64,000 nucleotides of DNA. Origin: Balanoglossus misakiensis. Taxonomy: Eukaryota; Animalia; Hemichordata. Below, one piece after another: positions 29,240-58,722 of the stretch; within the stretch, counting starts at the first letter, position 1; the number at the start of each line of letters is the position of its first letter. The stretch covers positions 8,254,232 to 8,318,231 of the forward strand of contig CM082589.2 of NCBI GenBank assembly GCA_040954595.2. The letters are read 5' to 3'. Made by a program: the position numbers and the translations under genes. The notes below the pieces were generated by a model. That model was given only the letters and a program-made list of their open reading frames with translations, searched no databases and was not told the origin of the DNA.

Positions 29240-30406
29240 CTAGAGGTCTTCCTGAACAAAACGTGCTCCGTCGTCACCGCTATCGGACATGTTCTCGTCA
29301 TATCCATTGGCGGGTAGGACTCCATTGTGATCAATTAATGTCGTTGGCTGTTTTGGTTGCCGCCCGGCAGCGTCGTACATCTGTCGATTTGGCTCCGGTC
29401 GTCCAGTTTCTGCAACCAAGTACCGGCATTAACGTTTTTCTATGCTAAAGGTGTAAGTGTGTGTGTGTTGGGGTGAGGGGTAGCCGTATGAGTTCAGCAC
29501 CGACTTACATGTAGGAAGTGAGGCACTCCCCGTGCTCTCCCTCTCCCCTATCTCTTCTCCTCTTTCCATACCTCCCATCCCTCCCCGTCTCTCCCCTACC
29601 CCCCCCCCCACACCCGTCCATTGCTTCCACTCACCTGCCTCCACAATAGTCTCCCCGTTTGATCTTCGCCGCCGCCGCTGTAGTATGAATATGATCACAA
29701 CAGCAGCGACCACAGAAAGTACCACTAACACTGGCACCAAGACCTTTGGCAAAATGTCAACATCTTAAAAACAAAAACGTCATTGTTAATATGTATTTTT
29801 TTAAACATCAACATCTATTGGTTATTGACTATGCTAGACTTCTTTGCATGTCCAATTTAACGCGAAATAGATTCATCTCCAAATGTAATCTACCTACCGC
29901 GTCAAGATATATGGGACAGCTCCAGAGACATATTGTAAACACAAATAAAAAAACATGAAATGTGTTCGAAAAACAATACTGTCGTCTTCAGTTAGAAGTT
30001 AAAAGCTCCAAAGGGACATGGGACGTCCATTGATATTTTGGAATGGAAAAATACACAATTAAACAAACATCCATTGAGTCGTGGACCAATGTCGACAGGT
30101 CTGTCGAAAGTGTCCCGTTTATTCAAACAGGGAATAAACGATGTCATGACCATGCACGGTCGTTTTTGACTGACCTGTCTTTGGTAGAATGCACATCCCA
30201 CAGTTTTTGTCCGGAACAGAGTCGCACAGACTGCATGGTTGACACAATCCGTACAGACTGTCGCAAAATTGTCCGGGTTTGCATAGACAATCTTCACCCT
30301 GAACTGTGGTCAGCAGCGTTGCTAAGGCTACCGTGTAGAATAATGTGACTTCGCTCGGCGATATTGGGCATTTAAACTTGCCAAAAACACCTAGCGGAGA
30401 GGCCAT
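29240..30406 (-). CDS. Single-CRD TNFR-like receptor A (exons 30406-30175, 29763-29635, 29409-29240)
   Basis: Signal peptide, then 8-Cys CLCKPGQFCDSLYGLCQPCSLCDSVPDKNCGMC. TM VLVPVLVVLSVVAAVVIIFIL followed by QRRRRR. Tail ..RQPKQPTT..ARFVQEDL*. GT-AG phase-1 introns keep the frame. Confidence 0.85.
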
Positions 30407-30478
30407 TACTCACGATTTCAAAAGCGAGCGGCAGTTGTGCACGTCTTGGGGTTGAGTATCGTCAGGTTTCCACGCCAT

Positions 30479-30995
30479 GGAAAATTCCATCACTTTTTGT
30501 TGTTGTTGCAGCGAACATGCTTACTCAGTTTTGGGGAAAGTCCCACAGTTAATCCTACCGTGCACGTTCACAGAGTCCACGCAGCTTTTAGCGCGTGATA
30601 GCCAAACCTTGTGTAAAATCTGTTCAGAATGGGTTAGGTTATAGAGTATCCTTTTCACACCATGGAAAATTCCGTAATAAAATGTGTTATTCTTTTTTTT
30701 AAATTGAGCACGTGCTTGGCAATGTTTCAGGTTTAGTGGAAATTCGAATACTCACGCATGCTCAGTTCAGATAGCTTCCAGTTTGAAAAGGGTCATATGT
30801 TTTGTCTCTTCTCCTGAGCTTTTTAACAATAAACACGCCATACCACAAACTTTACTGTGTGTGGCTATGCTACCACCCAGCTTTATTACAATAATAGTTT
30901 ATAACAATTGAACTGATAAATGGCGGTTCATAAAACGCCTAAAGACCCCGCCCTAAAAAAAAGAGCTTAAAAAACCCTCTTTGAGGGAAAATTCC
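30479..30995. promoter_or_regulatory. Cluster of NF-kB-type sites upstream of receptor A
   Basis: GGAAAATTCC (30479, 30664), GGAAAGTCCC = reverse complement of canonical GGGACTTTCC (30535-30544), and GGGAAAATTCC (30985). Confidence 0.6.
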
Positions 30996-31166
30996 TCTGA
31001 AAACGCGTTAGGTCTCTGAACCAAAACAGAAAAGAAAAGAAATAAAATTTTAACAGATCAAAAGGTGACTCGACTGACCGGTGGTAGCGAGTAGACTGAC
31101 CTCATTACCATACCTACTTGATATTCGTACTCCTATAAACAGCGCCCTCACGAAACAACAAAACAT

Positions 31167-33203
31167 TTTTATATCCCTGCACCAGAATAGACCTGTACTG
31201 GTCATTTTGCTCTGTTTGTGGGAGATACAAAAACACGACACAACCAGAATTGGCGAAAAATGGCCAAGAGATATTGACCCTTTATTGCAAAGTTAACAAT
31301 GTGTAAAGATGATGAAAAATTCCTCGCCAGTTGCCTGCCTCAATAAAACAGCAAAAACCTCAACAAGGTAGGTATAGGTCAAAGGTCAACTGGCGAGGAA
31401 AATTAACATAACACTAAACACTGTAAAATAGGTACATAAAGAATCTCCCACAAAGGTGTGGGCCTAAAAACGCCTCTAACAAGTACAATCCAATGCGACA
31501 ATGAGATAAGTAAAGATACAAAGTCCATGTAAGCTCTAAAATACATATACCTCCGTCCCATACGACCTAGGTAGGGGAGGTAGATGGGGAGGCGGTGGGA
31601 GTGAAAATTCGAGGAGATGAACCAGCTCGTTGTCTTGAAGTCACGGCTGTAAAATGGAAAAGGCTGTTCCTAGTATTGACTCCCCCCCTATAGGAAACTG
31701 CAAATATTGTCAAGGCGGGAAAATGAAGTTGCTCTTCCATGAAGTGTCTCCCCCCGGAGACTAAAGTGCTGTAAACCTCCCTGTCGGATAATAGAAAACT
31801 GTAAAACTTGATCACTAAGAAGCATGTCTATAAATGCGATTATAATAGTGATTATAATCGTGCTTTTATATCCCTGCACCAGAATAGACCTGTACTGGTC
31901 ATTTTGCTCTGTTTGTGGGAGATACAAAAACACGACACAACCAGAATTGGCGAAAAATGGCCAAGAGATATTGACCCTTTATTGCAAAGTTAACAATGTG
32001 TAAAGATGATGAAAAATTCCTCGCCAGTTGCCTGCCTCAATAAAACAGCAAAAACCTCAACAAGGTAGGTATAGGTTAAAGGTCAACTGGCGAGGAAAAT
32101 TAACATAACACTAAACACTGTAAAATAGGTACATAAAGAATCTCCCACAAAGGTGTGGGCCTAAAAACGCCATAAGCCACACCCTGGTGTGGCCGCCCCA
32201 CCCAAAATGACCAGACCACCCCAGGGAAGGACCCTAAAAACACCATCCCCTGCTCTTGATAGCCATAAGCCTAAAAATTGGTTACCAAGATGCTGGTTGC
32301 CTAATGTACCCCTTAAAAGCATCTGACCTCCACCTGCCTAAGGCACGTATCTGTGCATCAGACAAACCGTCTTTAGCAGCTTGAGAGGCTGCTCCTATCC
32401 TAAAGCTATGTCCCTTGAACCTGTCTACCTCAAAGCCGCAAAAAGTGAGCAAACGCCTAAGCTGTGCCGTGAAATCTCCCCGTCCTATGCCTAACGGCCC
32501 TGGCATGCAGAAAAGAGGGCCAGGCTCACTCCCCCTCAAACGATACCTTCACTTGTATCATGTTGCACTCGTACAATGAAAAGTCTAGATGTAATAACCA
32601 AGTCTCAAAATTTGAGAGAAGAAAGTGCGTAATGTAATGTAAAATGAAAATAAACCACGTAGATGAAAACCTTGGAACAAGGTAAAATCGGACGCCGTAA
32701 TATATCAATGTGGGGCTTGTAAAGCTATACCATAAAATGTAATTACAACTCGGGATGCAAAACTGTGAAACGGCGTTAAATGAAAGCTACTATGAAATAT
32801 TGAATAACATATATACCGACAACTACTTCGTAAAAAAGAAAATAGCCTTAGCATTTACCGCCAATGCTATATGCAATTCTCTACAAAAACCTTATGCATG
32901 GTAGGAAATTGGCACTTGCCTGAAAAATCGAAGAAAAAATGAAAATTCGAGGAGATGAACCAGCTCGTTGTCTTGAAGTCACGGCTGTAAAATGGAAAAG
33001 GCTGTTCCTAGTATTGACTCCCCCCCTATAGGAAACTGCAAATATTGTCAAGGCGGGAAAATGAAGTTGCTCTTCCATGAAGTGTCTCCCCCCGGAGACT
33101 AAAGTGCTGTAAACCTCCCTGTCGGATAATAGAAAACTGTAAAACTTGATCACTAAGAAGCATGTCTATAAATGCGATTATAATAGTGATTATAATCGTG
33201 CTT
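31167..33203 (-). mobile_element. Ngaro/PAT-type tyrosine-recombinase retrotransposon, internally deleted, with split direct repeats
   Basis: Repeat A at 32940-33203 = 31602-31865. Repeat B at 31864-32171 = 31167-31474. Order on the minus strand is A1-(YR)-B1-A2-B2. Confidence 0.85.
32282..32525 (-). pseudogene. Tyrosine recombinase C-terminal fragment
   Basis: FKGHSFRIGAASQAAKDGLSDAQIRALGRWRSDAFKGYIR contains the HxxR, W and catalytic Y motifs of DIRS/Ngaro recombinases. The N-terminal part is missing. Confidence 0.9.
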
Positions 33204-36001
33204 ATTTCACTCGACTATACGTTTTACTTTGAGAAATAACATTTTTCATAAGACAACCTGAGCGCATGCGTGCTAGTAACATTATAGAAACAGTGCAAGC
33301 GAGAATACTAATGATTTACCAGTGTACTGGTAATTCATGCTGGGGTTGCTCTGTCTCTTTTTTAATTATAAAAGTTCTTAATTCACCCTATTGAAAACAT
33401 TTGGCTATAAAGGCCGCGCGACATTCAGGTACGCAGGTGACTTTTCTGTGAATAAGTATTTGGATAGCCAGTACGCGCAAATAAATGTATGAATATATGC
33501 ATGTACATGTCACAATTTAGCTGCAGTTATGTGTGTGTTATTGATCAGTCACTCGTATCATTTACACAAGTGTTTGTTCTGTTGGTCGTAAATTTAAATA
33601 GGTCGACATTTTGACAGACTCGTTAATTTATCACATTGGCAAATGATTGTTCTGTCCAGGGACTGTTTTTTTTATCACGACACACATACCAGGGCACACT
33701 TATCTGAACACTGCAGAGGATGAAAGCAATATGTTGGTATATGAGTACATATGTCGCAGTTTTGAACTTCGGGAAAGGCGTCACTGGCCAATTTCCATGG
33801 GGTAGCTATACAGAGAATGTTGAGTGAATAACCTGTTTACCCACTAAAACTGACAAGGGACACTTAATGGTGTGCGGGCATTCATGAACTGTGGACAACT
33901 CAAACAAGGTACGTCCAAGGTTCAGTTGATTCGAATTGCAACTTCAAATTTGACTATTTCGTGAACAGAGCGTTAATTAATGGTAAAGTGGTGATAATTA
34001 GGTCCACCCAAATGTTTAAACCACTGCATGACGCAATTCATGATTCGCAATCACTTCACTAAGCAGACGGTTAGGGAGGAACACTTTTTAGGGAAGTATA
34101 AGCGGTTGGTAAAACATTGAAACCTGGCCGTTCAGTTTTGGTACGTGTACCGAGTTGTCAGGGTAGGTCAACCCTGGATGCAGATATTTGAGTGGGCGTT
34201 CATGCGATACCATATCGCCGCTGGAAAGTCTGAACACGGATAGTGGGCGGAACACTTTATCTGAACTTCGACTAGTCCTAACGTTGTGTCAATTAAGTTC
34301 GTGGAAAAAGCTTTAGTTGTCCGTGCTTCTGAGAGTGATTTCAATGTTGACGAAAACTATAGAGAACAAAACGAAAGAAATTCATAATAAGCAAGCCAGA
34401 TAGGTATTTTCCAATAGGGAGACCCTGTCCACCAATACAAGATAAAGTGACAATCATGTTTGCAATAACGTATAGCTGCTACACCCTTTGCACCTCCTTT
34501 GACTTGGTTGCAACTGCGTCACAGATGGGACCCATACCCGCGCCTCACTGCTGGAAGAACGCCAAATCATTACTCATTTCTCGAAATTGCTTTGCGATTT
34601 CACTGGAACCTGGATGACCGCCATTGCAAATACCTAATTTGCATACGTCGGATACCAGTCTAGGTTCTTATGTATACATTATAACGTTTTTACGGCTCAT
34701 ACGTATAAAGTCGAACTTTACTTTGCTTGCTTTAAACGGCTAAGGGGCTGTTGATACTCTTATACGTCACGACATTGCAGTTGTAATTGGATGATTTTTT
34801 TCGCTTACGATAGCGAACGACAATTTTTCAAAATAGTTTTGGTTATGCGGCCATTTTGAGTCGGCAAGGGTGAAAAGTGTGTTAGAAAGTATTGAAACGC
34901 AAGAAAAATAAAAGCAAGAGTTTCGAATGTATTTTTAATAAAACGTTTTTGGTAAATACATGCACACTTACAGGGATAAAGCACCAAATGTTTACACACA
35001 ACATACTACTTATAAAAAGTGCAAATCATGTAAATTAAATAAGACAGAATCTGGAAAAAAAGATTCACTTCACGTTCTATTGAAGTCTTATTCACTAAAC
35101 ACATAGAGACAATATTCTTTAAAAATTACAATTACTCAGTATTTTCCATTTTTGCGTAAATGACAAAGACCCCTTCTTACCCGCCACTTAAAAACTAATG
35201 CTAGCATTTTAATCTACACCACCTAATTGGTGATATTGTTTTAATATATGCATGATGTGTAAATGTTTTTTGTTGTTTCCATATCAACCATCCCTGAAAT
35301 TGCACTCTTTATGTCACTCTTTATATTATCAATACAGCTCAAAGTTAGTCATACAGATATATGTTGAGCATAAGGACCTTTTCATGGAAATATGTGGGAC
35401 TTGAAGGTTTGTTTAAATAACACTGAAATTTTCAGATCATTGCATTACTTGTCTTGTAAATAATATGGTCCAGTATGAGAAAAGCACCCGTTGACATAAT
35501 ATATTTTGCAATTTGTTATAATACTGAGAATGTGAAAAACGTTATATAGGCATATTGCGTATAATAATATCTTATTATAGGAACGCTAAAATGTACATCT
35601 ATTGATAAAGCTTCACTCTTATGCTCAAATATATATATAACACACTTAACAACATTATAGAGATTATACCACTAGTCATTTCTCCAGCTACCCAACTGAG
35701 ACAGAAGCAAATCTATTTTGGTCGTTTCCCCCTCTGTAGTATGTCATCCTTATTAAGAGGTCAAATCGTCCAGTAAATGAAACTTGAAAGTGCGCAAAGT
35801 AGGCTACGAAATGATGTGACATACACTGTCCAGAACCTCTTTAGTACTTGTTGCTTTCAGGCCCATAAACCTACTTAATGTTTTTTTCGGCAAACAGCAG
35901 GTACAGTCACAATTCTGTTTGTTCGGGGCCAAGGAAATTTCTGTCGGGGATGACGTCATCGTTAGGGAGTGAATTTCAGACGCTTATCCCCTTCAATCAC
36001 A

Positions 36002-37765
36002 TCACACCTCGCTCTCTCGAACTTCCTCGTTTTGTGAAGACGACGTGCTGCCCCTATTGCATTCCGTGTTACCGCCTCCGTTGAGGTGTCTGGCCTCCAA
36101 CGGTTGCCTCTCGGGGTCGCGATTTTCCTGCTGCGTTGTGGGGGCGTGGAATAGTGACTCCTGAACTCCTATTATAACAAATTAATACGTCACAGTCACA
36201 TAATAATAAATGCAATTTGTAACGTGTGCACAATAGTTTTACGGAGTGATAAACAACCATTTATCTTCGATACTGTTTGCATTGCTGCAGTGGTGACAGA
36301 TGACAGCTTTTATACGGCCGCGGCCTATGTAAGTCATAAGTACGCATATAAATAATAGTTTTATGAAATGTGCATAGTATACCGGAAAAGGCTATTAGCA
36401 TCAGCCAGTTAACTCACCGCCCATTGGAACGTCGTCATGGTAACGTCTACCATATCCAGTGGCGTTTCGACGTTTCCGCACGATGTGGCAGACAGTGGCA
36501 CCTACTCCCGCTAAAACGAAACCTATTGGCAACCAAATCCAATCGTACACTGGGATGGCAGATTTCTGTTCGTCGACAATTGGCTTCTCTGGCTTCACAT
36601 TTATGTCTGGAAAAAAAAAACAATAAATTTATTGTTATCATTTTAGACGCATAATGTGACGGCGCTTACAGAGTTAAATAGAATATTTTTTTATCTGTGT
36701 ACCGTCGACGATGATCGCATGATATACACAGCCTGTGAATCGGGAGGCGATGCCATATCTACAAAATCTGGCTGTGGAGGCGCTGTCGTCCATTTATACT
36801 TGCCTATGCATTTCGGTAATTAAAAGACCACGCGGGGCCTGCCATGATTAATGCGTACACGCCCTCCCTGCGCGATTCAGGGTCACAGTAAAACCACGGG
36901 TTGACCATGTGGACATCACAATCGAAGTGTAGCAGTTTGTTTCAATCACTGTGGTTGGATACGTCCTTTGTGTTTCTTTGTTTATACCAGTTTATACACT
37001 GTATGAGCAAGGGGGCCTGACATGATTAATGCGTGTCACACACGAGTGGCATAGAGCTATTTCAATAGTTACGAGCCATGTGTAGGATAAGCTTGATAAT
37101 ACTCTACCAAACTATGTAAACCACGGTTGATCATGTGGACAACACACTATCCCGTAGTGGACAGTTAATTATGACTGGTTGACATTTTTTGCGATATGAG
37201 AACAATTACAGCTCCTACCTTATCTCAGTACCATAGATATCATCGCCGAAAATTTTCCAACCGCTGGCATGGCAGAGCTATTTCAAAAGTTATGAGCGAT
37301 GTGTAGGATAAGCTTAATTAATACTCTACCAATTTATGCAATTCACGGTTTGATCATGTGGACAACACACTATCACGTAGTGGACAGTTTATTATGACTG
37401 GTTGACATTTTTTGCGATATGAGAACAATTACAGATCCTGCCTTTTGTCAGTACCAAAGACATCATCGCCGAAAATATTCCAGTTTTCTCGTGAGCATCG
37501 CACACGAGCGCAACTAAATGCATTTTGCTAGAAGCGAATCGCTAGCTGTACCTCTTGGATATCCTAAAAGGACGAAGTTTGGCTTACCTTGATGACATAT
37601 TTTGCAATTTTCCTCGCCAGGTAGATCATCGCACAATGTACACGAAAGACAATTACCGTAGATAGAGTCACAAAACTCATCAGCTGCACAGTAGTCACAT
37701 TCTAATTTAGAGGCCAGCGCCACTCGAATTACCGCCGCCGACACTGTCATCCAAAAAATCAACAT
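36002..37765 (-). CDS. Single-CRD TNFR-like receptor B (exons 37765-37588, 36606-36418, 36168-36002)
   Basis: Signal peptide, then CDYCAADEFCDSIYGNCLSCTLCDDLPGEENCKIC. TM WIWLPIGFVLAGVGATVCHIV followed by RKRR. Tail GVQESLFHAPTTQQENRDPERQPLEA..EEVRESEV*. Confidence 0.85.
37048..37481. repeat. ~224-bp tandem duplication in intron 1 of receptor B
   Basis: agagctatttcaa..tgtgtaggataagctt..catcgccgaaa occurs twice. Confidence 0.85.
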
Positions 37766-38712
37766 ATTGTGCCGACAAAACGGGTCAGATTGGACTCAGA
37801 AATACTCGCGTGGAGCACAGTGTAGTGTGTCCAACTGCAGCCACTGAAATGAGCGAAATCGGGACATTCAATCGCTACATGGACACAGTTAGCCGTGTGG
37901 ACATCACGTGGAACAGTACAGCCATGCATGCGGTATATCTCGCACAACCAGGAACCAAGTCGCTGGCGCTGTCCAACAGTCCTCTTTTTTATATCTTAAC
38001 GGCGACTAGCTTTGTCTTTCACCTTCTAAACACACCTTTTTATGTATTTCTGTTTACCGTTTCAACTGCAGTTTCTACTTCAAAGTCCACAATTAAGATT
38101 GTCATCAACACAGGCCACATTTTGAAACTCATCGTGTTCCATTGCTTGGAACGAATCCAACACACGTGTATAGGTGTTTTGAACTGTGAACTAGGCATAC
38201 TTTAAGCCTTATCTATTGTATGAGATACCCATAGACCACAACCACCGCTTCTGTCTTTGGAACTCAGTGTAAGGAATGCATTTAATTGTCTTATTGGGAC
38301 AATTAAATATTACAAATACCATGTCTCGAAAGACAAAGACCACTTGTTCTCATCAACACGTCTGTTTATCGTGCTACTCACACTTACCTATAAAAAGTGT
38401 TACATTATGAATCAATTGGGTCTATGGTTTAATATTGTTTCTAAATATTTGTTCTTGCTGCAAGCGAGGCATCCAAATAGGAAATGATTTTTCATGTGAC
38501 GACTCTATACTGGAGCTTTTTTTTAACAACAGCGTGTGTATTATTGCCTTATTACAGTGAATGTGTAAACACTGGCCTGAGATGGGAGCTCAAGAGATAC
38601 ATTTGAATATGATAATGAAGGCCCATTTTGAAGGGAGAAAGACTAGAAAAAATATACGCAAGCCAGAATACATGGCGTACCTTACATAGCCACACAATCC
38701 AATTTAACATAA

Positions 38713-40672: not shown

Positions 40673-41906
40673 TTACATACTTGCATCTAACGGTTGTCTT
40701 TCGGGGAGTGGTTCCTGGGTCTCGCGGACTGCTTTCTGGAGGTCTGTCATCTCAGTTCCTGGATGGAAGACGAGAAATTCGTTGTCATAAAATCCCACCT
40801 ATCGCTACAATATCTCTCAGATGTGCTTAGGAAAAGAAAAGGGCTACCCTACTAGGCAGTCTCTAATATGTGGACATGTGTCTGTTTTTTTCCTTATGTA
40901 ATCAATTGACCATTGCAACAGTCCTTGTTACGAGATTCATGGAAAATTCTAAGAAATACTTGTGAACTTACCACCGCCATTAGCAGTTCGTTTCCTTGAA
41001 GGTTTTAGAAGGCGATCTCTGTGTCTCCTGAAACAAAACCCTGATGTTGCTCCGATCCCTGCAAGACCAGAGCCACTCAACATCGATATCCACAACGACT
41101 TAAACGAAGGAGGCTTAGTTTTCTCTTGAGTTATGTCGTTGACATCAGTTGTATCATTTAAGCTCCCAATCTTCTCCAGCCCTTGTTCTCCTGTCAAACA
41201 ACGGGTTAATTAGTTGGTGTAAACCTAAATGAAAGCAGCAAAATCATGTACACTTCTGATGGGCAACTGGGGAGCTTATTTGTCTCAAATTTGAAAGCCA
41301 ACTTAAAAATGACCCCAAAAATATCTCCAAGGAGAAAATTTCAAGTAGAGAATGTTTTGAAAACCAGACAGTAGATATACCCTGTTTCTTTTTTGTTTTC
41401 AGTAAGAATACACACACAAACTATAATATTACAAAGAATTGAAAGGTATCTTGGTGTATACTACCATAATAGTAAGCCAATACGCGAGTTGCAAAGAATT
41501 ACGTATAAAATATTTTTCGCCACGATCGTATGCACAGTATCGCTTGCGTGCATTTGTTTTTAAGGAATGGTATACATGTAATCTGTATGTAGAATTGGCC
41601 AAATTGTTGCAAGATGTAAGAGAAATATCGTTCTTACGTGTATTATATGTACACACCGGCATGCGATGCAATTGACCAGCGCGCGTGTTGAAAGAATGTT
41701 CTCATACCTGAGCACATTTTGCAGTTTACCTCGCCGGGTAGGCCGTCGCACGCGCTGCACGGTAGACATGAACCATGGACAGAATCACAAAATTGGCCGG
41801 GTCCACAGTCGCGGTGTTGACATATGTCAGTCGATGATGCCAAAGCCAAAGCTACTACTAACGCAAGAAGCGTTGCACTAACACCGAAGCACAGCACTCT
41901 CATCAT
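40673..41906 (-). CDS. Single-CRD TNFR-like receptor C (exons 41906-41708, 41190-40972, 40758-40673)
   Basis: Signal MMRVLCFGVSATLLALVVALALA, then CQHRDCGPGQFCDSVHGSCLPCSACDGLPGEVNCKMC. Weakly hydrophobic TM LWISMLSGSGLAGIGATSGFCF followed by RRHR. Tail ..RETQEPLPERQPLDA(SM*). A further 3' exon through GCAA|gtatgt is possible. Confidence 0.8.
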
Positions 41907-43919: not shown

Positions 43920-45170
43920 CGTTGGTGGATTAAAATAATAGCGGGGAATATACTTCATCCTCTGGTTTTTCGAAAAAAATACAGAATAAAACAAAATGAC
44001 ATTCGTTTTCAACTTAATTTTTGTTACATATCAAACATACTCTTTTATTGACATCATTTTTCAAATTTCTGTCTCTTTCAATACACAAATAATGGGAAGA
44101 ACATCTTAAGCGTGCTAAAATAGAAATGTGTACATTGATTTTTACAACATAGAGATATTTTTCTGGTGTAAGTGAACATAACAGGAAAGTTTATCAAGGG
44201 TAGAAATTTCGCCATACCAATTATTATATAAATAGCTCTTAAAATTACTTACAAAAATCTTGTGATATCGATTTTTTGGCATTTTTAAAAGTTTGCACCA
44301 ATATTTGACACATTTTGACAAATGAATTGGAAATCTTCCACATTCACCTAAAACAGCAACATTTGGCGTGTTACTCGATACACCCAAAAAACACTTACAT
44401 GCTAGATATTGAATTCTCTCAATATAATCATAATTTGTGTATCCCCATACTTCTGAACCATAGGTAAGTATTGGTAAAACCATTGCATCAAAAATCTTGA
44501 AAAAAGTGTCTTTGGAAAAATAACCAGTCTTTTTGCTCACTCTAAAAATACCCATGAGAACCTTTCTTGCTTGTTGTGCAAGAGTTTTTGTGGCCATTGA
44601 CCATTTCAATCTACAGGAAAACAGAATACCTAAATATTTATAATAGGAAACAACATTTACCCTCTCTCCGTTAAAATACTATTTTTCTGTTTTTGCAAAA
44701 TAACCACCAGATTTAAATACAACCACTTTTGTCTTTTGTAAGTTGACTGTCATCTTCCATTTTATACAATAACAATGCAACAAAGTCGCTGTAGACCAAT
44801 TACAGAGTCAGAAAAATGTACAACATCATCTGCGAACAGCAGACATAAAATTTCTGTCAAATATGGCGAAAGTTGTATACCACGCTGACCACTGTTCTGT
44901 ATATCATGTGTCAGTTCATTTATAAAAAAAGAAAATAAGAAAGGACTGAGCATACATCCCTGTCTAACCCCGACAGGACAGTTGAAATATTCCGTACATT
45001 TACCATTGTTTCTTACACAAGATTTAACGTCTTTATACATGGAATTCAAAATTTTAAAAAGTTTGCCATTTACACCGCCTTTCAAGAGAATAAACCAAAG
45101 CCTCTGTCGCTCGACAGTGTCAAATGCTTTCGCAAAATCAACAAAAGCGCAGTAAAATTTGCCACTAATT
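43920..45170 (-). mobile_element. Decayed non-LTR retrotransposon RT (CR1/L2/RTEX group)
   Basis: FYCAFVDFAKAFDTV, GVRQGCMLSPFLFSFFINEL, LLFADD, YKYLG and FDAMVLPILTYGSEVWG, with frameshifts and deletions. Confidence 0.92.
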
Positions 45171-45272
45171 TTTGAATAACTACCGCGTGATGTCGTTACT
45201 GAAACAAAACAAACTGCAACGTACTAATTTAACATTATCAAAATTATGAAAATTATAAAATTAGCGAGCATG

Positions 45273-46826
<1,554 letters not shown>

Positions 46827-48144: not shown

Positions 48145-48181
<37 letters not shown>

Positions 48182-48608
48182 TACACTACTAAAGCTTAAC
48201 AGATATCCGCAAGCAGCAACTGTTGTCTATGGCACCTATAGTTCTGCAACTCGTAAGCAATTTTGTTGCTGACTACAAGGCAAAAGTAAACCAATGACGT
48301 AATGTTCCTTCCACTTCTCTTTATTAATGAATATTTCACATCCAAGCGACCGTCTTACCACAACCCGTCACACAGTAAATTATTCCACAGCCTGATGGCG
48401 CCTACATGAGGAACACGCTCGGAGAGTTGTTGCGCATGTGTCAAAGGTTGACCGCGTACATTGCAAACTCGGACGAGTCATGTTTCAACAGGTGCTTGTC
48501 AATGTACAGAGGTATTGACACTTGGTGGAGACAATAGAGATGTCATGATATATTATTCATAGCACCAAAGTAGACTATGAAAGCTGTGTCAGTCACACCC
48601 ATTCGGGG

Positions 48609-49973
48609 TTAAACCGCGGTCACTTGACTCAAATTGTCTGTGTCTTCTGCATTTGCTGGTTGTGTGACGATCGCAGGTCCTGTTCCATTTTGACCTGGAC
48701 GATGAAAGAAAAAAAATCAGGCGCTAATAATGTGTCTAACATGTGTAAACGACTAACTTCAAACAAACTACAACGCAACCATGTCTTCCGTTATGTTGTA
48801 GATGTTGTCAAACAGATGGAACAAAATTTCGTGAAAAATAACGAAATGTTGACTATGACGTTTTATGTGCTGGAATGTTCACATTCATACCTTCGAGTGG
48901 ATTCAGCCTGCCATTTATACCGTTCATATTGACATTACAATGTGGTCCTCTTCTCTCTGTCATTGAAGAAAAAGTGCGTGTTAAGAAGTCTATGTTTCGG
49001 TATCCATGTTTTTCAAATGAAGAAAGGAGAAAGTGTCAAGCAAAAGACTCATTTTCATTACCCTTGCTCAAAAACAACTGCATGGAAATGAACTAAAAGG
49101 TAATTTCACACTGCGAATAAATGGATTGTTGATGCATGGGTGGGTTGGTCGGTGGGTGTGTGGGTGGGCGGTTTGGTGTGTGATGTTTGGTTAGGTAATC
49201 GCGATGAATTATATAGGTCAACTAACATTTTCACCTTTTAGGATCTGTTCCAGTTGTTCATGACCCTTGATTATACCGTCCATCTTCTTGCTATGCCTCC
49301 ACTGAACGCACAAAATAGTAGTGCAAAGTACCGCCACGAGAACCGAGCAGCCAATTGCCGCCGACACGACATTCCAAAATGGAATATCAGGGAACTCTAT
49401 AGAATTAAAGCAAACGTGTCATCTTAGACCACATGTAATTTTTACAACAACACATAAATATGAAAATGTTGGTCAATTTCGTGAGACTAAAAAAAACTGA
49501 AAAACTTAATCTTTGTGAGAAAAAAAATAAAAGATGAAAAATGACTCACTGGTGATAAGTTTCTGATATGTTCCAGGCGTCGTTGAAGTGACGTCATCTT
49601 CTGAGTTCTCATGAATAATTATCTGATTTGGCGTTGAAGTGACGTCATCTTCTGAGTTCTCATGAATAATTATCTGATTAGGAGTAGTCGCCAGATTCGC
49701 CCTTGGGGTCACTGGTAGTGTTGGGTTGCTGGGAGGCCTTGCAGTCACCATGGCCTCGTCAGGTACATGATGTGCAAAGTCATTATCAGGACCATTCATG
49801 TAGCACTGGTAACGCCCTTCCTGAGCAATTCCTACGCCATGGTCAATGCACGTTCCCTCATCACAGGATGACAAACATGCTTCCATTGATGGAAAGTACT
49901 CGGACGACACTCCGGGTATCGCTCCAAGGATTAGTATCACGCCCACTACAACAATCTTTAGCTTTGACGTCAT
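48609..49973 (-). CDS. Receptor E: half-CRD, long stalk and TM (exons 49973-49550, 49396-49235, 48956-48891, 48694-48609)
   Basis: Signal peptide, CLSSCDEGTCIDHGVGIAQEGRYQC, P/T-rich stalk, TM FWNVVSAAIGCSVLVAVLCTTILCV, tail ending DNLSQVTAV*. All introns are GT-AG and phase 1. Confidence 0.85.
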
Positions 49974-52316
49974 ATCAGCTGTCGATACAGAACGGGAATT
50001 GCCAGTTTAGCCAATTGATGTACATGTACTAAGTCACTGGGCTATATCACGCTGAAGTAAGCGAGTAAAGGTGGTAGATGTCTGGTGTACATGTCTGCTT
50101 TTTTTTAAATTAGAAACTTGTAATTGATCAACCAATAAGCCATGATGGAGGCCGGGGCCTTTATCATGCGATGAAGTTGTTGGTGGCGATCAGAATGTAC
50201 ATTTTGCAAGGTATTTGAAGAAAAGTCCCAGGGCTATGATACAAATATATGACACCAATAAGTTTTGTTTCCGATCAACCTTAAATTTTAATTTTTGAGC
50301 GGATTGTAGAAACCAGCCGAGAAATGCGGAATGCCTCAACACGAATATAAACTGAAATTCCCAGAGTTGTTATAAGTTATTCCATTTATAAAACATAATT
50401 CGGAGGGAAAAAAGAATAAAACTTACCCATTAAGTATTTCTGTGCAAGATAATTGCCTCCAGAGCTTGAAATGGGTGGTCCCGGCGCGGCAAAGCCCAAC
50501 ACGTGTTAATCTAACTCCCTAGGTTAATGCATATGGATCTTCTAAGTAAAAATTTGTGTAGTAAAAAGTAAACTCAAGAAGCCGAAATTTTGAATTCAAC
50601 AATTGTAAAAGATACGAAAAACGTTTACAGTTTTGTGTGATTAAAGTTAAGTCTATTATACGACTTACGAGTGTACAATTTTGGAACTATTAATTAATTT
50701 ATTAGTATTTGCCGCGCCTAGGGAAACCATTACCAAAATTACGTCGAGGACGATTTCATTTTTAACAATCAGGGGGTTTCCCAGTGGTCTCTCATGGCAG
50801 TATAGAATTAGTGGTCTGTCATGGCAGGAAATTAGCATAAACAGGATATCCCAATTAAGAACATGATCACGTGATATTGAGCCACTTTCTTTTTTTAAAA
50901 ATCTACGTTAAAATCACGCTTTAATAAACGGCCAGTTGTAACCCACTAAACATACAGCACAGTACAGAAGAGAAAATCAACAAAGCACATCGAACAATAA
51001 AAGCCGGGATAAAATACCGCTAATGCAGAAGGAATGGCTTCCGTACTTATATTATTTATGAGCTACTGTCATAGAGATAGCTGTCTGTCTGTCTGTCTTC
51101 GGTTGGGTGGGTGGGTTGGTGCTAGCGGTATCTCAAGAATGCCTTGCCAGATTATTTTCATAAGTTCTTCATCGGATCTCAATAATCTTGCAGATGCAGA
51201 TCAGCTGATATTGACAAACGTTTCAAAAATCAAAGCAGGCAGAACTCGTAGTCAAAGCGTGTATGTGTGTTTGGTTTAAGCTTTGGGGGACTTTTCATAT
51301 AATCACTGTGACATCACCTACTGCATGTGTGTTACCAGTACCGTCTAATAAATTTAAATCTATTCTGTCCAGCAAAGTTTATAAAAATGCACCCTGTATT
51401 CAACAAAATATTCGTACTCTGCTCATTCATTCATAAAAATGCTTCATTTATTGCTTGTGTAGTATGAACCATTAAAACTCCCCAATGACATATTTTCAGG
51501 ACAAAAAAATCAATCATCCAACCTTTTTAATTATGTTCTATATTAAAGTACATGTGAGGAATCTTTTTCAAAACAAAGAAGAAAACTTGGCGTTCAAAGA
51601 GCATCCCCATTAAAAGAAAAAAAGGTGTGGCTCTTAAATTATCGAATGTTTGACAGCGACAAAAAAATCCTTTCTTGTAGTTCGAAAATTTGCATTCTAT
51701 GACGTCATTGAAAACTTTAAATAATACAGTATACTGTTTTCATTGCAACTGTTTAACTTTTACATTAATGTCCGGTCATCACATGGTTGTGGCATTGTAT
51801 GGAACTCACCGCTGTTTGACTATTGTTATAGTAACAGATGTCCGTTTGTCTGTCTGTTGGCATGCTCGTTAAGTCGTAAAAGCCAATAATATTACTCCAA
51901 TAAACTTATAATAACCCTTTTCAACAACCATTTAACAACTCATCAACAACTCTTAGCCATGTCAACATCCAGGGCTAAACTTTCAGCGCGTGGTAACTAT
52001 CACGCTGCTGTCATGGACCTGAATTCCCCACCATGTCAAACAATTAAACATTTATTTGGGAGTAGATTTAGGTTGTGAAAATGCCATAATGTCTCACAAC
52101 CAACAGTCAACGGAAGTAAAACCTCCGTGAAAACGTGCCCTATCTTGTGGAATGAATGAATGCGTCCAGTTTTCCGTTAAAATCAATTTATTGCATTGAC
52201 TCAAACTGCATGATATTTTACCGGAAAACGCTCTCTTAAAACCCAAGATGTCTAAAATTAAAAATGAAAAGACACACACAATAAAACATAGGTCAAGATT
52301 ACATAATCCACACAAA

Positions 52317-54294
52317 TTAAGATTTCAAAACTTGGGTTTGAATGTCTCTTCCTTCGTCTGTTGGAGTAGAGTGTGAAACCGGGCGCCTAGTTCCTGCACT
52401 GTTCAGAACCATGTCCGTCTCGCTGTTGTTACGAGGTATCTGCTGTCCACGCGAGTAACCATTGATTTGTCCGTCTGTGAATCGAAATATATGAATAAAC
52501 ATATTTCAATTTGATAGAAACTGTCAGCTCGTATAGAATGCAATTAAACGCCCAACTGCATGGATATGGATGATCAGGTTGATATTCACAAATCAGCGTT
52601 TAGGTAGAGCTTCGACTTACTTGTCTTCGGTTGTTCGTTTGACACATGATTGACAGTTGAAATGTTGACCACACTCTGGGGATCTCCTTCTGTGCTGTTT
52701 AGTTCTGGAAAAGAAAAAGTAAAACTCAACAAGTTTTCCTTTCAACCACTGCAAACGGCTAAATGAGTTGATATTAGGAGATCCGTTTAATATACCACAG
52801 TTGCGATTGTACTTTAAGAATGCTGTATAGAAAACAGACACTTTCAGGAATTATATTTTTGTGCCAATTATGATCGAAGTCTTGACCTACTAAAAGTATA
52901 CTAGTATATTTTAAACATGTCATTAAAGGATGAAGATTTGACCTTAAAGGGACAAAGTCTCTCTCGCTGCCCTTTTCCATTTATTATGTTTGATACAAAA
53001 CACCGTTTATGTTAATGTGCATGTGGATATATAGTGAATCAATGTTCGACCACACACAACTTCCATCCCACTGGTAGACATGAGTGTGAAAAAAATCACC
53101 AAAATGAATAAATGGTAAACACCGATTATTCATTTTGGCGAATTTTTCACTCTCGTGTCTTCAAGTTGGATGGAAGGTTATGTGTAGTTTAATGTCGATT
53201 CACTATATATCCACATGCACATTAATATAAATGGTGTCTTTTATCAAAAACATAATTAATGGAAAAGGGGCAGTGAGAGAGAGACTTTGTCCCTTTAACA
53301 AATAGAAAAATAATGCCATCGTTTCTGAGAATTCTTTCCAGTGCCAAATTTACCTGTGACGTTTGTATAATTTCTGTACTTCATTCTGCGTTTAATTGTG
53401 TCCTTCGCGAATAAAATACAGATGACACACAGCACAAAAAATGAGACCACTGTCATTGATGTCATCACAATGTCTCCAGCCAGAGTTACTCCAAGAAAAC
53501 CTAGCACGAGAAATAAACAGACCAAAATTACTGCTCATTGGCATTTAACAGCTAATAATAGATTATTTTCTGTTGATTGTGAGAATTCGCGAGACTTGGT
53601 TAATTACCGTAGCAACGGATTTCTAGCCAAGTAGTTATAAAAGTCAAGCTTTGTATAAAAGTAGAAAAGCTTGTGCCGATTAACTCGATGGACCATGTGT
53701 TCTTTGTCCTGTGTATCACAAGAAATACAAATGTATATGCCTGAAATTTAAAACATGAGGGACTTCCGTTCGGCAATGTGCCACTCTGCATTCATGTTCT
53801 TGCTTCACAATATAATCGATCAAAAATCTAAAAACGTGCTGCCTACCACTGAGGCGTTTTTCTTCACTTCTGTACCTTAGGAAATCTACATGTATAGAGA
53901 AATATATATTTAGCGTTATGACAATCAAAACTATATTTAGCATTATGATAATAATGAACTATATTAAGCATTTAATAATACTGAACTATATTAAGCATTA
54001 TGATAATACTGAACTATATTTAGCATTATGATAATAATAAACATGGTAATATGAATGATAATTGAACTTACGTGAGCAATGATCAGTGCATCCTAAGGAT
54101 GGTCTTTCATTGGGATCAGCATCCTTTAGTGGACAGATGTCATCACACGGTTTACATTCATATCTGTCGTCTGCTGAGATACCTTCTCCGTGATCGATAC
54201 AGTATTGATCCATTGTGTAACAGTCAAGTTGACATTGACCTTTGACGAGGCCAAAGGTCATAATAAGGAACAAGGCTCCGGAGAAGATGTTCAT
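52317..54294 (-). CDS. Grindelwald-like single-CRD receptor F (exons 54294-54072, 53885-53847, 53500-53354, 52704-52621, 52474-52317)
   Basis: Signal peptide, CQLDCYTMDQYCIDHGEGISADDRYECKPCDDICP..GCTDHC|SHFLRY, TM exon GFLGVTLAGDIVMTSMTVVSFFVLCVICILFA, tail ..SETDMVLNSA..RRPVSHST..TQVLKS*. Confidence 0.85.
52948..53294. mobile_element. Kolobok-like palindromic MITE in intron 3 of F
   Basis: TTAA|AGGGACAAAGTC...GACTTTGTCCCT|TTAA. Nearly the whole element is an inverted repeat. Confidence 0.85.
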
Positions 54295-54828
54295 ATTTAT
54301 ACCTCTGAGAATTTGGGCGCAGAGAATGTTGAGAAATATTGGTTAATCGGTTGATTAATATTTACTGCACAGTGTCAAAATGGACAGAAATCGTGTAAGG
54401 GAAATACATACTTATGTTTAACTGCAGTTTTAACACCACCCTATTGTTTTAATAAACATTATTACTGAAACTTTTCTCCCAATCTGATCAAAATCAGATG
54501 TAGGGAACGGCGATGTGGTTTTTTATGCTGTCGCACTAGTGTAGGCGCGACAGCATTAAAAACACGTCGCCGTTCCCTACAACTGATTTTAATCAGATTT
54601 TTTTTCTCCATAGAGTTGACGCAGAGATTGGCGGCCAATGTGAAATTCAAATTTAATGATGAGTGATGTCATACACACAAATGTGAGGTAACTCAAGGGT
54701 CATGGAAGTGGCCTATTGACATTTTACCACACAGAAATGGCGGATACTCAAATTTGAATCATATGTAAATATTGGTCTGTTGTGGCAGGCAAGAGAGTCA
54801 TGTATAATGTTTTACGAACGTTCCATTG

Positions 54829-55580
54829 ATGCTATTTTTGGCCCGTTCGCGAGACGCAACAGACAGCACGTATATACGCAAATTTGGCATAAATGAGTGA
54901 ACGTGGTCTGAGATGGCAGGTGCACACAGGTACGCCCTTATCACATGGCACGGATGTGTGAATCTGTGACTGGACTTACCTGGTCTGTTCTCCAACGATA
55001 ATAAATTTTGTACTGACCGCTATAATGGCAAGAAACAAATAAAATCAATCAAATGTGTTCAATTATTCTTGAACTCGATAATATACTTGTCCCAGTCGGG
55101 TGCTTCCCGAACTGCAGTAGAGGGGTTCCCCTAAAATAACGTCATCGAATAGTCTAAATTGGGGGAGTTTACAGGAGGTTGCAAACTTCCGGTGTGACCT
55201 CCATGCTGGAAGGATTCTCCCCATGACCGAACCAATTTTCCCTAATTTTAGAGTGATGATGTGTTTTCTCCATTGAATTAGAGTGACCACGCGGTAGAAA
55301 CATTCATCCCTTATACTACAAGTGGATATATTTTAGGTATCCTTGGTGTAATTTAGTTATTATTACCAAATATTCTCTCAACAAAGTCTTTGTTAATTCT
55401 GATCAATTAGGACCAGTCCCATCGATGCTATTTTATGGCCTGTTCGTGAGATGCAACACGTGCGCAAATTTTGAATAAATTATTTAACGTGGTCTGAGAT
55501 GGCAGGCACAAAGAGCTACGCCCTATCACATGACACTGATGAGTGAATCTGTGACTGGACTTACCTGGTCTGTCCTCCAA
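54829..55580 (-). repeat. Direct duplication (54829-54995 / 55425-55580), each copy carrying a minus-strand splice donor
   Basis: aatctgtgactggacttacctggtctgt occurs twice. It reads ACCAG|gtaagt on the minus strand at 54980 and 55565. Confidence 0.75.
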
Positions 55581-55706
55581 GTGAATCAACGCTTTCTGGT
55601 AGAATAATCTCGGACTGTGTTTCTCAACGGATATTGACAAACGTTTCAAACAAACAGGAAGACCTCGCCGTCAGTGACCGTTCCAAACGCGCTTCTGTGT
55701 ATTTGG

Positions 55707-55735
55707 TATATACAAGTTGTGGGGACTTTCCCCCA
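55707..55735 (-). promoter_or_regulatory. Candidate promoter of F: canonical kB site and TATA-like box
   Basis: GGGACTTTCC at 55722-55731 and TATATA at 55707-55712, ~140-160 bp upstream of the donor at 55565. Confidence 0.5.
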
Positions 55736-56944
55736 CAAAATTACACCGCCTACTTCTGATCAAATACTGATGTGTTACAGTACCATGCCATAGATATAAA
55801 TCTACGCCGTTCGTTGTGTCCCATATCCTGTATCCATAACAACATTAATGTGTGCTCTCTATTTCATTCAACTACACTATTATCGCTTGTGCTGTATAAA
55901 ACCAAGGTCAAGTGCCCGCCTCAAGGACAGATAGTCCTCCAAACCTGTCATGAAATCTTGGAAGAGAATTTTTTTTAAACAAAGAAAAGTATGTGTTCAT
56001 CGTCCTTATTTCAAAAAATAACTACTGTGCATTTTCAAGTTCTCCATCGAGTTAACACAAAGAATTACGGTCACTTTGAATTCCAAATTTGTGACAATTT
56101 TGCTTTTCTAGTTCAAAATTTTGCACGTCAGTGACACCATTTTTATTATCACTTTGAAGAGCAAAATTTGAGAAAAAGTTTAAGACTGACTTTCCAGCTG
56201 TGTACTACACTAACGACATGTATTGGGAATAGTAACAAGGCGACTGCGACCAGGAGCTCAAACTTCTGACTTTATTGAAAAAAAAAACTTTTCGGTGACT
56301 AAAGTGTAAAATCAAAGGTGGTAGCCCTGCAAAGTCAGTGAAGAGAAGCTATGCATTGTAATCTACATCTTATGAAACTACATATCGTGAATTGAAAGTG
56401 TTCAACATTCGACCCATTGCTACATGGCGAGCGTGTATAGACAGTAAACATGATACAAAGCGATAATCTAGAACCATTCTAGCCTAGAACCGTATAGAGA
56501 GATTTCTTTTGATGAAGATTCACTCGCATTTGCAGTCTCTCACAGCTCCCTGTTAAAAGTATACAGTACAAGTAATTTTGACGTCATGCAAGAAATTACA
56601 ACCACCCTGAGAACTGACGAATATGTGTGGATGCTTTGTATAGTTCTTAAATTGAATTTTGCTTTGAACAATCTACTTATCACAACTAACATGGCTACAA
56701 GCGTAAGCTGAAATTGTATTTTTTTTCTTAATGTATACAATGTCATGGGTGCAGAAGTTCTACATTTAATCTACATGTATGTTCATGGGGTTTCTCAGAA
56801 AAAAATAACTTAACCCTGGTGCACGAGTGACATCCGAACTATTAACTTGCGCCCACTCATTTACGTTTAGACATGATGGACTTTGTCATAACAAACATTG
56901 TAATTTGTCCAAACCTCTAGCGATTCAAAGGGCAAAGGCACCTC

Positions 56945-58722
56945 TTAACATTTTAATACTTCAGTGGGTCCTATATTTCCTTCTGCAGAGTCGGTGGCAT
57001 GTAGGACTGGGTGGCGGTTGTTGTCCATATCACTGGCACTGTTCAATAACATCTCTGTTTCTGAATGGCACCTTCTCAAGGGAGGATCCGACAGCTTTGG
57101 CTTGGGCGAAGCTGAAAGGAAATTTGAAATACGCTCTTAGTAATTGCAAATGGGAACGTTTTGTTCCAACAAAGCAAGTGCGGTATTTGCTTATTTTTAT
57201 TCCGATCTCCAACTAGTAAATTTTCTCTCTTCTTTTTTAAAAGAAAAGAGGTGTGGCGCTTAAATTATCGAATGTTTGACAGCGACAAAAAACCCTTTCT
57301 TGTAGTTCGAAAATTAACCGTTGCGATTTGCATTCTATGACGTCATTAAAAACTTTAAATAATACAGTATACTGTTAACATTGCACTGTTTAAGTTTTAC
57401 ATTAATGGCCGGTCATCACGTGGTTGGATAATTGTGTGGCATTGTATGAAACTCACCGCTGTTTGACTGGTTGACTGTCACGTGGGTGATAGTACTCGGT
57501 GGAGCCAGAGCAGCATGCACATCTTGTGGTGATTCAACATCACTTGAACCTGCAGTTAACAGAATAATTATTATTGCAAATTAGAGTGTATTCTCTTGAT
57601 GTAGCTTTTTTTAGTTTGGCAAATATAGACTATGGATCTCAGTCAAGTCACTCGTGAAAATTTGCACTAGAGTTCAATCCAAAGTAAAAAAATATGTGCT
57701 GTTCCGATTACCCGACTTACCCTATATTTAACCTTACTCTAAACTTTTCAGAGTTTCGTAAATCCGGAAGTAAAAATAAAGATGCCAAATATACAAAAAT
57801 TATGAAAATTGCGCGAATCACTCGAGAACTATGACGTCATTCTTCTACACTACGGCGGCCAGAGAAATAAAAAAAAAATCGCAAAATAATCGGAACAGCA
57901 CGTATTATTTTATTTGGCCTCAGCGTGTCCCTTACCAGAAATATCAGTCCCACTGCCTTGTTGGTCGCGTCTAATTCTGGTTTCTCGTTTCTTTTTCCGT
58001 TGTAGGTTGATGAACATCGCCACCACGACAATGACAAGAACTGCAATAACAGCTAACACAATGATATCCACGGCAAGGGACGAACCAAGAAAACCTGTAC
58101 CTGAAATATTATATATGAACTGAAGTTTCACTCATGGATAACAAAAGGGCATTTTTGTGACTGTTTAGTGTACGAAGTCAGAAAGACTCAAATGCAGACC
58201 AAACTATTGTTGTCAGAAAAAAATATAAAATCCTATCGTTATGCTCACCTTGTTTTGAGCCTAGAAATGATTGATGGAGGAAATCTACAGGCAGAAAAAT
58301 AACATCAGTTAGATTGTGTAGAGATGGAGGGAGGGAGGGAGAGGGGGAGGGAGAGAGAGGGGGAGAGAGAGAGGGGGAGAGAGAGACAGCCAACAGACTA
58401 AACAGGCGACCAAATCGTGCCAATAATTGTAATGAAACATTTTTCTATGCAATGACAAACTGCCGATTAAATTCTCATTTTGAGTAATCAATTTGTGGTC
58501 ATCGAATTTTCTTTCTGAATAAATAAGAAAAAAATTACCTTTGCATTGTTCTATGCAAGTCAAAGACACCTGTGATGTAGAAGTACCCTCGTCGGGCCTA
58601 GGGCAAATATCCCTGCAGGGCATACATTGGTACCTTTCAGACGGGTCGAGGCCTTCCCCATGATCCACACAGTAAAATCTGGCATCTCTGTAGCAGGATA
58701 CTTGACATCCATAGGCGGTCAT
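56945..58722 (-). CDS. Grindelwald-like single-CRD receptor G, no signal peptide (exons 58722-58539, 58284-58249, 58100-57936, 57549-57457, 57111-56945)
   Basis: MTAYGCQVSCYRDARFYCVDHGEGLDPSERYQCMPCRDICP..TCIEQC|KDFLHQ, TM GFLGSSLAVDIIVLAVIAVLVIVVVAMFI followed by RKKKR, tail ..SETEMLLNSA..RHPVLHAT..TEVLKC*. Exon-for-exon paralogue of F. Confidence 0.85.

Follow-up and report, generated by a model that had tools for sequence, protein, structure and literature searches.

Introduction

The described systems closest to the genes reported here are the small receptors of the tumour necrosis factor receptor (TNFR) family (mini-TNFRs), namely, the fly protein Grindelwald (Grnd) and the vertebrate proteins Fn14, BCMA, TACI and BAFF-R. 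We analyzed a 64,000-nt window of the genome of the hemichordate Balanoglossus misakiensis (GenBank assembly GCA_040954595.2, contig CM082589.2, positions 8,254,232 to 8,318,231 of the forward strand), in which seven small genes, A to G, form a tandem array and had been put forward as receptors with one Cys-rich domain (CRD) each, and compared these genes with the known receptors. All coordinates given are positions within the window. As described in the text of Palmerini et al. (PMC8024323), Grnd consists of a hairpin module with two disulfides (X2) and a helix-loop-helix module (C2), with residue Phe46 packed between them; Grnd is without the D-x-L motif that Fn14, BCMA and TACI use for ligand binding, and it binds Lin7 (Veli) and Traf2. 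The X2 module of BAFF-R described there is a precedent for a minimal module of four Cys residues.

The distribution of such receptors has been treated in several texts. According to the main text of a preprint (bioRxiv 10.1101/2024.07.27.603686), grnd-like single-CRD receptors are found in cnidarians, annelids, molluscs, brachiopods and arthropods, with 12 grnd-like paralogs in one annelid, and were treed with nine human grnd-like TNFRSF members; the Pfam family TNFR_c6 was reported to miss known grnd homologs. Deuterostomes, hemichordates, chordates, echinoderms, Fn14 and BCMA are not mentioned in that main text. The text of Esteban-Collado et al. (PMC11377715), who sampled Saccoglossus with human queries, calls the 8-Cys pattern unique to Grnd and derived within pancrustaceans; the paper's three text supplements, which have garbled tree labels and perhaps do not include Table EV1, gave no match to the accession of the Saccoglossus protein described below. 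In the main text of the PITA preprint (bioRxiv 10.1101/2021.12.26.474206), Grnd is called arthropod-specific, and four human TNFRs with one or two CRDs, unnamed there, are left untraced. On the ligand side, BAFF and APRIL are assigned to the EDA cluster in the text of PMC7674686, which also refers to two EDA-like ligands of sea urchin; TNF-family ligands are likewise treated in the text of PMC12843592. No published description of hemichordate single-CRD TNF receptors was found in the literature; the supplements of the preprints could hold one.

Results

The array consists of two gene families

Seven head-to-tail gene models were read off the minus strand and named A to G upward from position 29240, the stop of gene A, to position 58722, the ATG of gene G, which is exactly the extent given in the original prediction of seven minus-strand genes in 30 kb (Table 1). 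The models are 167 to 231 residues long and translate as open frames with a single stop; in every gene, the first exon is Cys-rich, and a hydrophobic segment and a short tail are encoded as well. All 19 of the 19 introns are GT-AG and phase 1, a count that is not independent because the exon borders were picked by eye; independent support for the exons comes from homology. It was found that gene A aligns over its full length with P0005, a protein of the acorn worm Ptychodera flava (72 of 160 residues identical, z 19.6 relative to shuffles), and that gene B aligns with the P. flava protein P0002 (71 of 166, z 24.8), gene C with gene B (52 of 149, z 18.0) and gene F with gene G (72 of 193, z 18.3). 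The corresponding value for D and E was z 2.9; the exons encoding their transmembrane (TM) segments are dissimilar, and their later exons are without paralog support. An eighth copy was not found by tblastn within the window. The array is real, and it is made of two families, A to C and D to G, rather than one.

Genes A to C combine features of Grnd and of BCMA/Fn14

The ectodomains of A, B and C contain eight Cys residues and the sequence F-C-D-S-[LIV], with gaps of 5, 6, 2, 2, 8 and 2 residues after the second Cys (7 in place of 8 in A), as had been claimed for these genes, the extra Cys pair included. The spacing of the second module, C-x2-C-x7/8-C-x2-C, is of the type present in Fn14. In an alignment of eight rows representing six independent genes, the eight Cys residues, F-C-D, and a G, a P and an N were invariant in all rows. 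The D-[ST]-[LIV] motif of A to C and three relatives is in register with the D-x-L tip of the BCMA hairpin, and the Phe that precedes the third Cys in A to C is in register with Phe46 of Grnd. A strict A-C Cys pattern and a loose 8-Cys pattern, both defined after inspection of the genes, were present three and five times in the window, respectively, in comparison to zero times each in 100 codon-shuffled windows.

The only Pfam match of A, B and C was TNFR_c6 (PF00020), with scores of 20.2, 16.0 and 24.7 bits, respectively (E 0.00082 for A and 3.2e-05 for C), all of which are under the gathering cut-off of 29.4 bits. The language-model (Atlas) neighbours of C were clusters of BCMA and TACI at 0.81 to 0.82, with nine of the ten best in agreement, which we treat as a lead only. 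When the Saccoglossus relative of these genes was compared with the sequences in the PDB, the top five matches were all BCMA (E 0.08 to 1.1), and its D-S-I aligned without gaps on the D-S-L of BCMA; the location of D-S-[LIV] at the BCMA ligand hairpin, a further point of the original prediction, was thus recovered through this relative at E 0.08. Gene C alone gave no match to PDB sequences.

A model of the B domain, built from the eight-row alignment, had a predicted local distance difference test (pLDDT) value of 75.7 and contained strands at residues 12-14 and 21-23 and helices at residues 24-29 and 34-38, which is a hairpin followed by two helices. This model was compared with 48,161 solved chains at a reporting level of Z 2. 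Six chains reached that level, and all six were mini-TNFRs (Z 2.1 to 3.3): human Fn14, which was the best (Z 3.3, root-mean-square deviation (rmsd) 2.6, 38 residues aligned), two chains of BCMA (Z 3.0 and 2.3), Grnd (Z 2.7, rmsd 2.2, 38 aligned), Xenopus Fn14 (Z 2.6) and BAFF-R (Z 2.1). Although these Z values are weak, the matches still count because all six belong to one small family. Among the same chains, no multi-CRD TNF receptor reached Z 2. Foldseek placed BCMA or Fn14 at ranks 1 to 9 and Grnd at rank 11, none of them significant, and the identity of B to its BCMA/Fn14-type structural matches was 18 to 29%. The comparison of modelled ectodomains that had been suggested matched B with Grnd, Fn14, BCMA and BAFF-R, although with weak Z; the model of F gave no match, which is uninformative at its pLDDT of 55.6. 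The hairpin plus helix-loop-helix fold is predicted for B and extended to A and C by homology.

The Pfam match, the Atlas neighbours and the fold search agree on a domain of the Grnd/Fn14/BCMA type for A to C, and it is likely that these three genes encode mini-TNFRs of mixed Grnd and BCMA/Fn14 character.

Membrane segments and tails of A to C

The sequences of A to C show a signal peptide-like start; a single exon encodes the Cys-rich domain, and one membrane segment, closed by a basic stop-transfer, precedes a tail of 48 to 76 residues. Hydropathy and the basic stop-transfer support a single TM segment in A and B; the segment of C is weak (mean hydropathy 1.13), and that of P0002, the P. flava relative of C, is also low (1.32). 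Overall, tail lengths range from 48 to 110 residues, and, as had been predicted, no match to a death domain was obtained with the tail exons searched singly or with the full-length relatives. With its weak membrane segment and cut tail, C may be a decoy or a decaying copy.

The tail motif P-x-x-Q-x-[LY]-[DEN]-A occurs once each in A, B, C, P0002, P0003 and P0005 and is absent from D to G. It was the best 8-mer common to the six tails, a set that includes orthologs, and none of 1000 shuffles was as good. Its fixed Q and the acidic residue three positions later resemble the minor TRAF motif. A C-terminus of the form S/T-x-V, which is the class I PDZ-binding form, is present in B, E, P0002 and P0005.

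Relatives of A to C are confined to hemichordates among the sequences searched

When 1.84 billion representatives were searched in full by HMMER with the A-C profile, seven matches were obtained at a cut-off of E 0.001, four of which are true relatives, all from hemichordates: three proteins of P. flava, from two genes, and one of Saccoglossus kowalevskii. From these relatives alone, an enteropneust source of the window would be likely. The other three were discarded, P0001 and P0007 as repeat proteins on reading and P0006 (1602 residues, seven short stretches) as repeat-type. The records of the A-C relatives are XP_070569383.1, XP_070569392.1, XP_070571007.1 and XP_070570933.1 of P. flava and XP_002739389.1 of S. 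kowalevskii, and all five are annotated as 'uncharacterized protein'; the expectation that genes of this kind are easily left unannotated was not upheld for these relatives, since they are annotated, though unnamed. The contig that carries each of the four P. flava records has one and the same length, 44,037,996 bases. The relatives have the same domain, TM segment and tail motif as A to C and are 43 to 45% identical to A and B over aligned columns. The P. flava entry P0004 is a frameshifted splice form of the A relative P0005 that is without a membrane segment, possibly a soluble decoy or an annotation artefact.

An unrooted tree of A to C and their hemichordate relatives grouped A with P0005 and P0003, and B with C and P0002 (100/99). 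The phylogeny that had been called for was thus obtained with the scope of this family. A P. flava partner was found for A and another for B, so that the A/B duplication is older than the split from P. flava, and the proposal of a lineage-specific expansion must be qualified to that extent.

Genes D to G

The motifs C-[IV]-D-H-G-x-G and R-[YF]-x-C are common to genes D, E, F and G, in which D-H-G stands in place of D-x-L. F and G contain eight Cys residues with C-x2-C-x3-C, a Tyr, also aromatic, before the third Cys, a 14-residue gap after it, and the C-x-P-C also present in A and C, and they end in C-x3-C-x14/15-C-x3-C, a Grnd-like spacing. D and E contain four ectodomain Cys residues only, short of a complete domain of six to eight, followed in exon 1 by 42 or 84 Cys-free residues, one-third of which are Pro, Ser or Thr; the Cys-rich part of both breaks off right after the fourth Cys, the position at which the two Grnd modules meet. 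The local match of D was restricted to F and G (E about 1.6e-4 in an 11-protein set). The description of every gene as having one Cys-rich domain, a TM segment and a basic stop-transfer was confirmed in part: D and E have half the number of Cys residues, the segment of C is weak, and two families are involved.

Gene G is predicted to encode a type III membrane protein like BCMA, on the basis of an in-frame stop three codons upstream of the ATG, an N-terminus that is not hydrophobic, a TATA-like box at 58790, 68 bases upstream, after which 58722 is the first ATG, and the strongest TM segment of the set followed by eight basic residues. BCMA, TACI and BAFF-R have type III topology and no signal peptide.

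We consider the case for TNFR kinship of F and G to be evenly balanced, and a function of D and E as receptors to be less likely than that. Similarly balanced is the suggestion that the Grnd-type domain is complete in F and G, its hairpin being eight residues longer, and that D and E retain no more than its first module, with two disulfides, on a stalk of mucin-like character. A search of PDB sequences with the F/G profile gave no match; rubredoxins, which were matched by F and the D-G profile (E 0.16 to 0.9), were rejected as a chance coincidence of Cys spacing.

Some local details of these genes were also observed. The TM exon of G has two in-frame acceptors six bases apart (58100 and 58094), the second of which agrees with the border in F. 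In exon 2 of gene D, an amphipathic, coiled-coil-like stretch (45813-45870, by reading) follows the TM segment and several juxtamembrane Cys residues. A perfect in-frame tandem duplication of 51 bp at 49581-49679 lengthens the stalk of gene E. Just downstream of F, positions 51610-51821 are an 85% identical copy of 57237-57468, the end of G exon 4 and the next intron, which is a remnant of the duplications by which the array arose.

Table 1. Gene models of the receptor array and neighbouring domain-coding exons in the window.
Feature	Position	Strand	Length (aa)	Exons	Characteristics
Gene A	29240..30406	-	176	30406-30175, 29763-29635, 29409-29240	Homology to P0005; predicted signal peptide, 8-Cys domain with FCDSL, strong TM (86-104), basic stop-transfer, tail motif RQMYDA
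Gene B	36002..37765	-	177	37765-37588, 36606-36418, 36168-36002	Homology to P0002; 8-Cys domain with FCDSI, moderately hydrophobic TM, tail with VQESL, motif RQPLEA and class I PDZ-type end ESEV
Gene C	40673..41906	-	167	41906-41708, 41190-40972, 40758-40673	Paralog of B; 8-Cys domain with FCDSV, weak TM, tail stops just past motif RQPLDA
Gene D	45273..46826	-	231	46826-46562, 46030-45812, 45604-45506, 45385-45273	Signal peptide, 4-Cys module with CIDHGEG, Pro/Ser/Thr-rich stalk, strong TM, tail
Gene E	48609..49973	-	223	49973-49550, 49396-49235, 48694-48609	Signal peptide, 4-Cys module with CIDHGVG, 84-residue stalk, TM, short tail with end VTAV
Gene F	52317..54294	-	216	54294-54072, 53885-53847, 53500-53354, 52704-52621, 52474-52317	Signal peptide, 8-Cys domain (gaps 3,6,14,2,3,14,3), TM, tail motif in common with G
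Gene G	56945..58722	-	214 or 212	58722-58539, 58284-58249, 58100 (or 58094)-57936, 57549-57457, 57111-56945	No signal peptide, 8-Cys domain (gaps 3,7,14,2,3,15,3), most hydrophobic TM of the set, then 8 K/R
DED-like exon	21997..22336	-			PF01335 E 0.0015, under cut-off; ends at phase 1 donor
DED and NACHT exons	1..4411	-		4411-4036 (DED), from 1071 to window edge (NACHT)	DED E 6.6e-13; NACHT E 1.8e-14; predicted in-frame splice

Neighbouring genes and repeats

DED-coding exons are present 6.9 kb and 24.8 kb beyond gene A (Table 1). The DED and DED-NACHT genes that had been predicted beside the array were thus found, the second with its two exons in frame, but the match of the first is under the cut-off, and no downstream exon for it was found within the window. 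A weak phase 1 acceptor lies inside the second DED exon (about 4384), with which a tandem DED-DED-NACHT transcript over 17.6 kb is conceivable. These neighbours would fit an immune-gene region; there is no direct route from the array receptors to the DED proteins because the receptors have no death domains.

Between the two DED exons (5609-14629), a unit of about 2.68 kb is present in about 3.4 head-to-tail copies of 98 to 99% identity, and the two of its open reading frames (ORFs) that were tested had no notable Pfam match; this is either a young tandem repeat or an assembly feature. An ORF fragment at 32282-32548, flanked by local repeats at 31167-33203, resembles the C-terminal end of a tyrosine recombinase of a DIRS-type element. 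Broken reverse transcriptase fragments of the long interspersed nuclear element (LINE) type were recognized by eye at 17854-19551 on the plus strand and at 44142-45223 and 60937-61548 on the minus strand, and that at 44142-45223 is directly behind the stop of gene D.

Discussion

The 8-Cys domain, the predicted hairpin and helix-loop-helix, the Phe before the third Cys, the single TM segment and the absence of a death domain make A to C similar to Grnd (PDB 6ZSY and 6ZT0), as does the PDZ-type C-terminus of some array members. In contrast to Grnd, A to C have a D-x-[LIV] tip and a second module of C-x2-C-x7/8-C-x2-C instead of C-x3-C-x11-C-x3-C, and the array has several tandem copies. F and G have the x3 spacing of Grnd, and they differ from it in the 14-residue hairpin. 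Relative to Fn14, BCMA, TACI and BAFF-R, which include the best structural matches of B and, in BCMA, a D-S-L in register with D-S-[LIV], A to C have two extra Cys residues in the first module and no canonical conserved TRAF motif, and the likeness is one of shared features; G is like BCMA, TACI and BAFF-R in having no signal peptide. The array also resembles the invertebrate grnd-like receptors of the main text of bioRxiv 10.1101/2024.07.27.603686 in the single CRD and TM segment, in being missed by TNFR_c6 and in lineage expansion; the signature C-x2-C-x3-C given there is matched by F and G, whereas A to C have C-x2-C-x2-C. Mini-TNFRs bridging the Grnd and Fn14/BCMA types, as put forward in the original prediction, are therefore an apt description of three of the seven genes, but no link of D to G to the TNFR family was obtained.

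The explanation that we favour, as a probable one, is that A to C are one-domain TNF receptors with a Grnd-type 8-Cys domain and a BCMA-type D-x-L tip, and that D to G are a second, older-diverged family that may share the origin of the module. Several points weigh against it. All scores are individually weak (Z 2.1 to 3.3, Foldseek E 0.65 or worse, Pfam under the cut-off, Atlas under 0.9), and P0002, P0003 and P0008 have no TNFR_c6 match. With one gene per branch, the tail motif was equalled in 8, 89 and 150 of 1000 shuffles, which is significant in one of three tests; it departs from the published TRAF consensus given in the text of PMC6125299, Px(Q/E)E, Px(Q/E)xxD or PxQxT, and the exact TRAF matches in A (PKQPT) and B (TQQE) are not conserved in the P. 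flava partners. Furthermore, the best match of the A-C profile among PDB sequences was not a mini-TNFR but CRD1 of mouse 4-1BB (E 0.15, seven of the eight Cys aligned). This match would be consistent with convergence, by which a single TNFR domain of the ordinary kind, for example a 4-1BB-like CRD1, became reduced in hemichordates so as to resemble BCMA/Fn14 and Grnd, with no bridge between these types; the restriction of the relatives found to hemichordates and the little phylogenetic signal held by 40-residue domains, noted in the text of PMC11377715, are likewise in its favour. We consider convergence unlikely, in that a helical second module, like that of Fn14, BCMA and Grnd, is predicted, no multi-CRD receptor resembled the B model at the reporting level, the D-x-L and the Phe46 equivalent are both in register, and grnd-like receptors across cnidarians and protostomes, as reported in the main text of bioRxiv 10.1101/2024.07.27.603686, favour an old common origin. 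Still less probable is that the genes encode, instead of TNF receptors, small surface proteins rich in disulfides (LDLa-like, Opy2-like, furin-repeat or toxin-like knots) for adhesion or self-recognition. The fast divergence and the mucin-like stalks of D and E suit a recognition locus, LDLa modules appeared in the lower Foldseek rows of B, and P0002 and P0008 touched Pfam Opy2 (E 1.8 to 3.1); LDLa and Opy2 were rejected for A to C because they are weaker than the TNFR matches. The leading matches of A to C in four kinds of search all belong to the TNFR family, and it is mainly D to G that such an explanation concerns.

The relationship of D to G to A to C bears on whether all seven genes are mini-TNFRs that arose from one ancestral gene as a diversified repertoire of receptors and decoys, to which we assign somewhat less than an even chance. 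Consistent with this are the location of all genes in one array on one strand with the same plan (the Cys module in a single exon and the uniform intron phase), the presence in F and G of eight Cys, of C-x2-C-x3-C, of a second module spaced by x3 like the C2 module of Grnd and of an aromatic residue in front of the third Cys, the clear relationship of D and E to F and G in the first module, and their ending at the junction of the Grnd modules. A model of F, built from two rows and of low confidence (pLDDT 55.6), contains two strands and then two helices, the same order as in B. However, there is no measurable similarity between A to C and D to G: the profile-profile probability was 0.4%, and D to G matched a profile of six A-type domains no better than shuffles did (82 to 478 of 500 as good). 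D and E are without half of the domain, and D-H-G replaces D-x-L. Pfam, with no TNFR_c6 match, PDB and Atlas gave no TNFR lead for D to G, the Atlas neighbours, at 0.78, being unrelated sets, and fold searches with the F model gave no match, a result that is uninformative at this pLDDT. Relatives of D to G were sought by word-indexed protein searches only, and none were found with the D-G and F/G alignments; this blank is weak evidence because a word-indexed search also missed the P. flava relatives of A to C that were found by full HMMER.

If A to C are one-domain TNF receptors as we favour, then, by analogy with the known receptors, they might act as follows. The domain is predicted to fold as a β-hairpin followed by a helix-loop-helix; the Phe that precedes the third Cys would pack between these modules like Phe46 of Grnd, and the disulfides would be connected as in the X2 and C2 modules of Grnd. 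Three receptors would grip one trimeric TNF ligand through the hairpin tip, as suggested by Grnd, BCMA and Fn14, and the ligand would most likely be of the Eiger, EDA or BAFF-APRIL type. Such clustering could gather the tail motif, a candidate adaptor (TRAF-like) site, and so permit signalling that needs no death domain. In B and in both P. flava relatives, the PDZ-type end may tie the receptor to a polarity scaffold, as in the Grnd-Lin7/Veli interaction.

A more far-reaching proposal, which we regard as doubtful, is that A to C retain the ancestral bilaterian one-domain TNF receptor, equipped with the four disulfides of Grnd as well as the D-x-L tip, from which fly Grnd would have descended with loss of the tip and vertebrate Fn14, BCMA, TACI and BAFF-R with loss of one disulfide or module, and that D to G replay the vertebrate paths independently. 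If this were true, then D to G would include, in one locus, a type III form without a signal peptide (G) and a minimal form with four cysteines (D and E), the idea that the 8-Cys Grnd pattern was invented by pancrustaceans would be overturned, and the B-cell survival receptors would gain an invertebrate deuterostome counterpart.

The single-CRD kind of receptor, its expansions and the link between fly and human members are already known; a hemichordate family in which Grnd and BCMA/Fn14 features occur together is new, in that we found no report of one. The origin of one-domain TNF receptors is unsettled, and this family fills a sampling gap at the invertebrate deuterostomes. Genes A to C and their relatives, which come also from two laboratory acorn worms, are concrete proteins for questions of ligand binding and of JNK versus NF-kB signalling, and the array reveals a part of the hemichordate immune repertoire that is invisible to Pfam.

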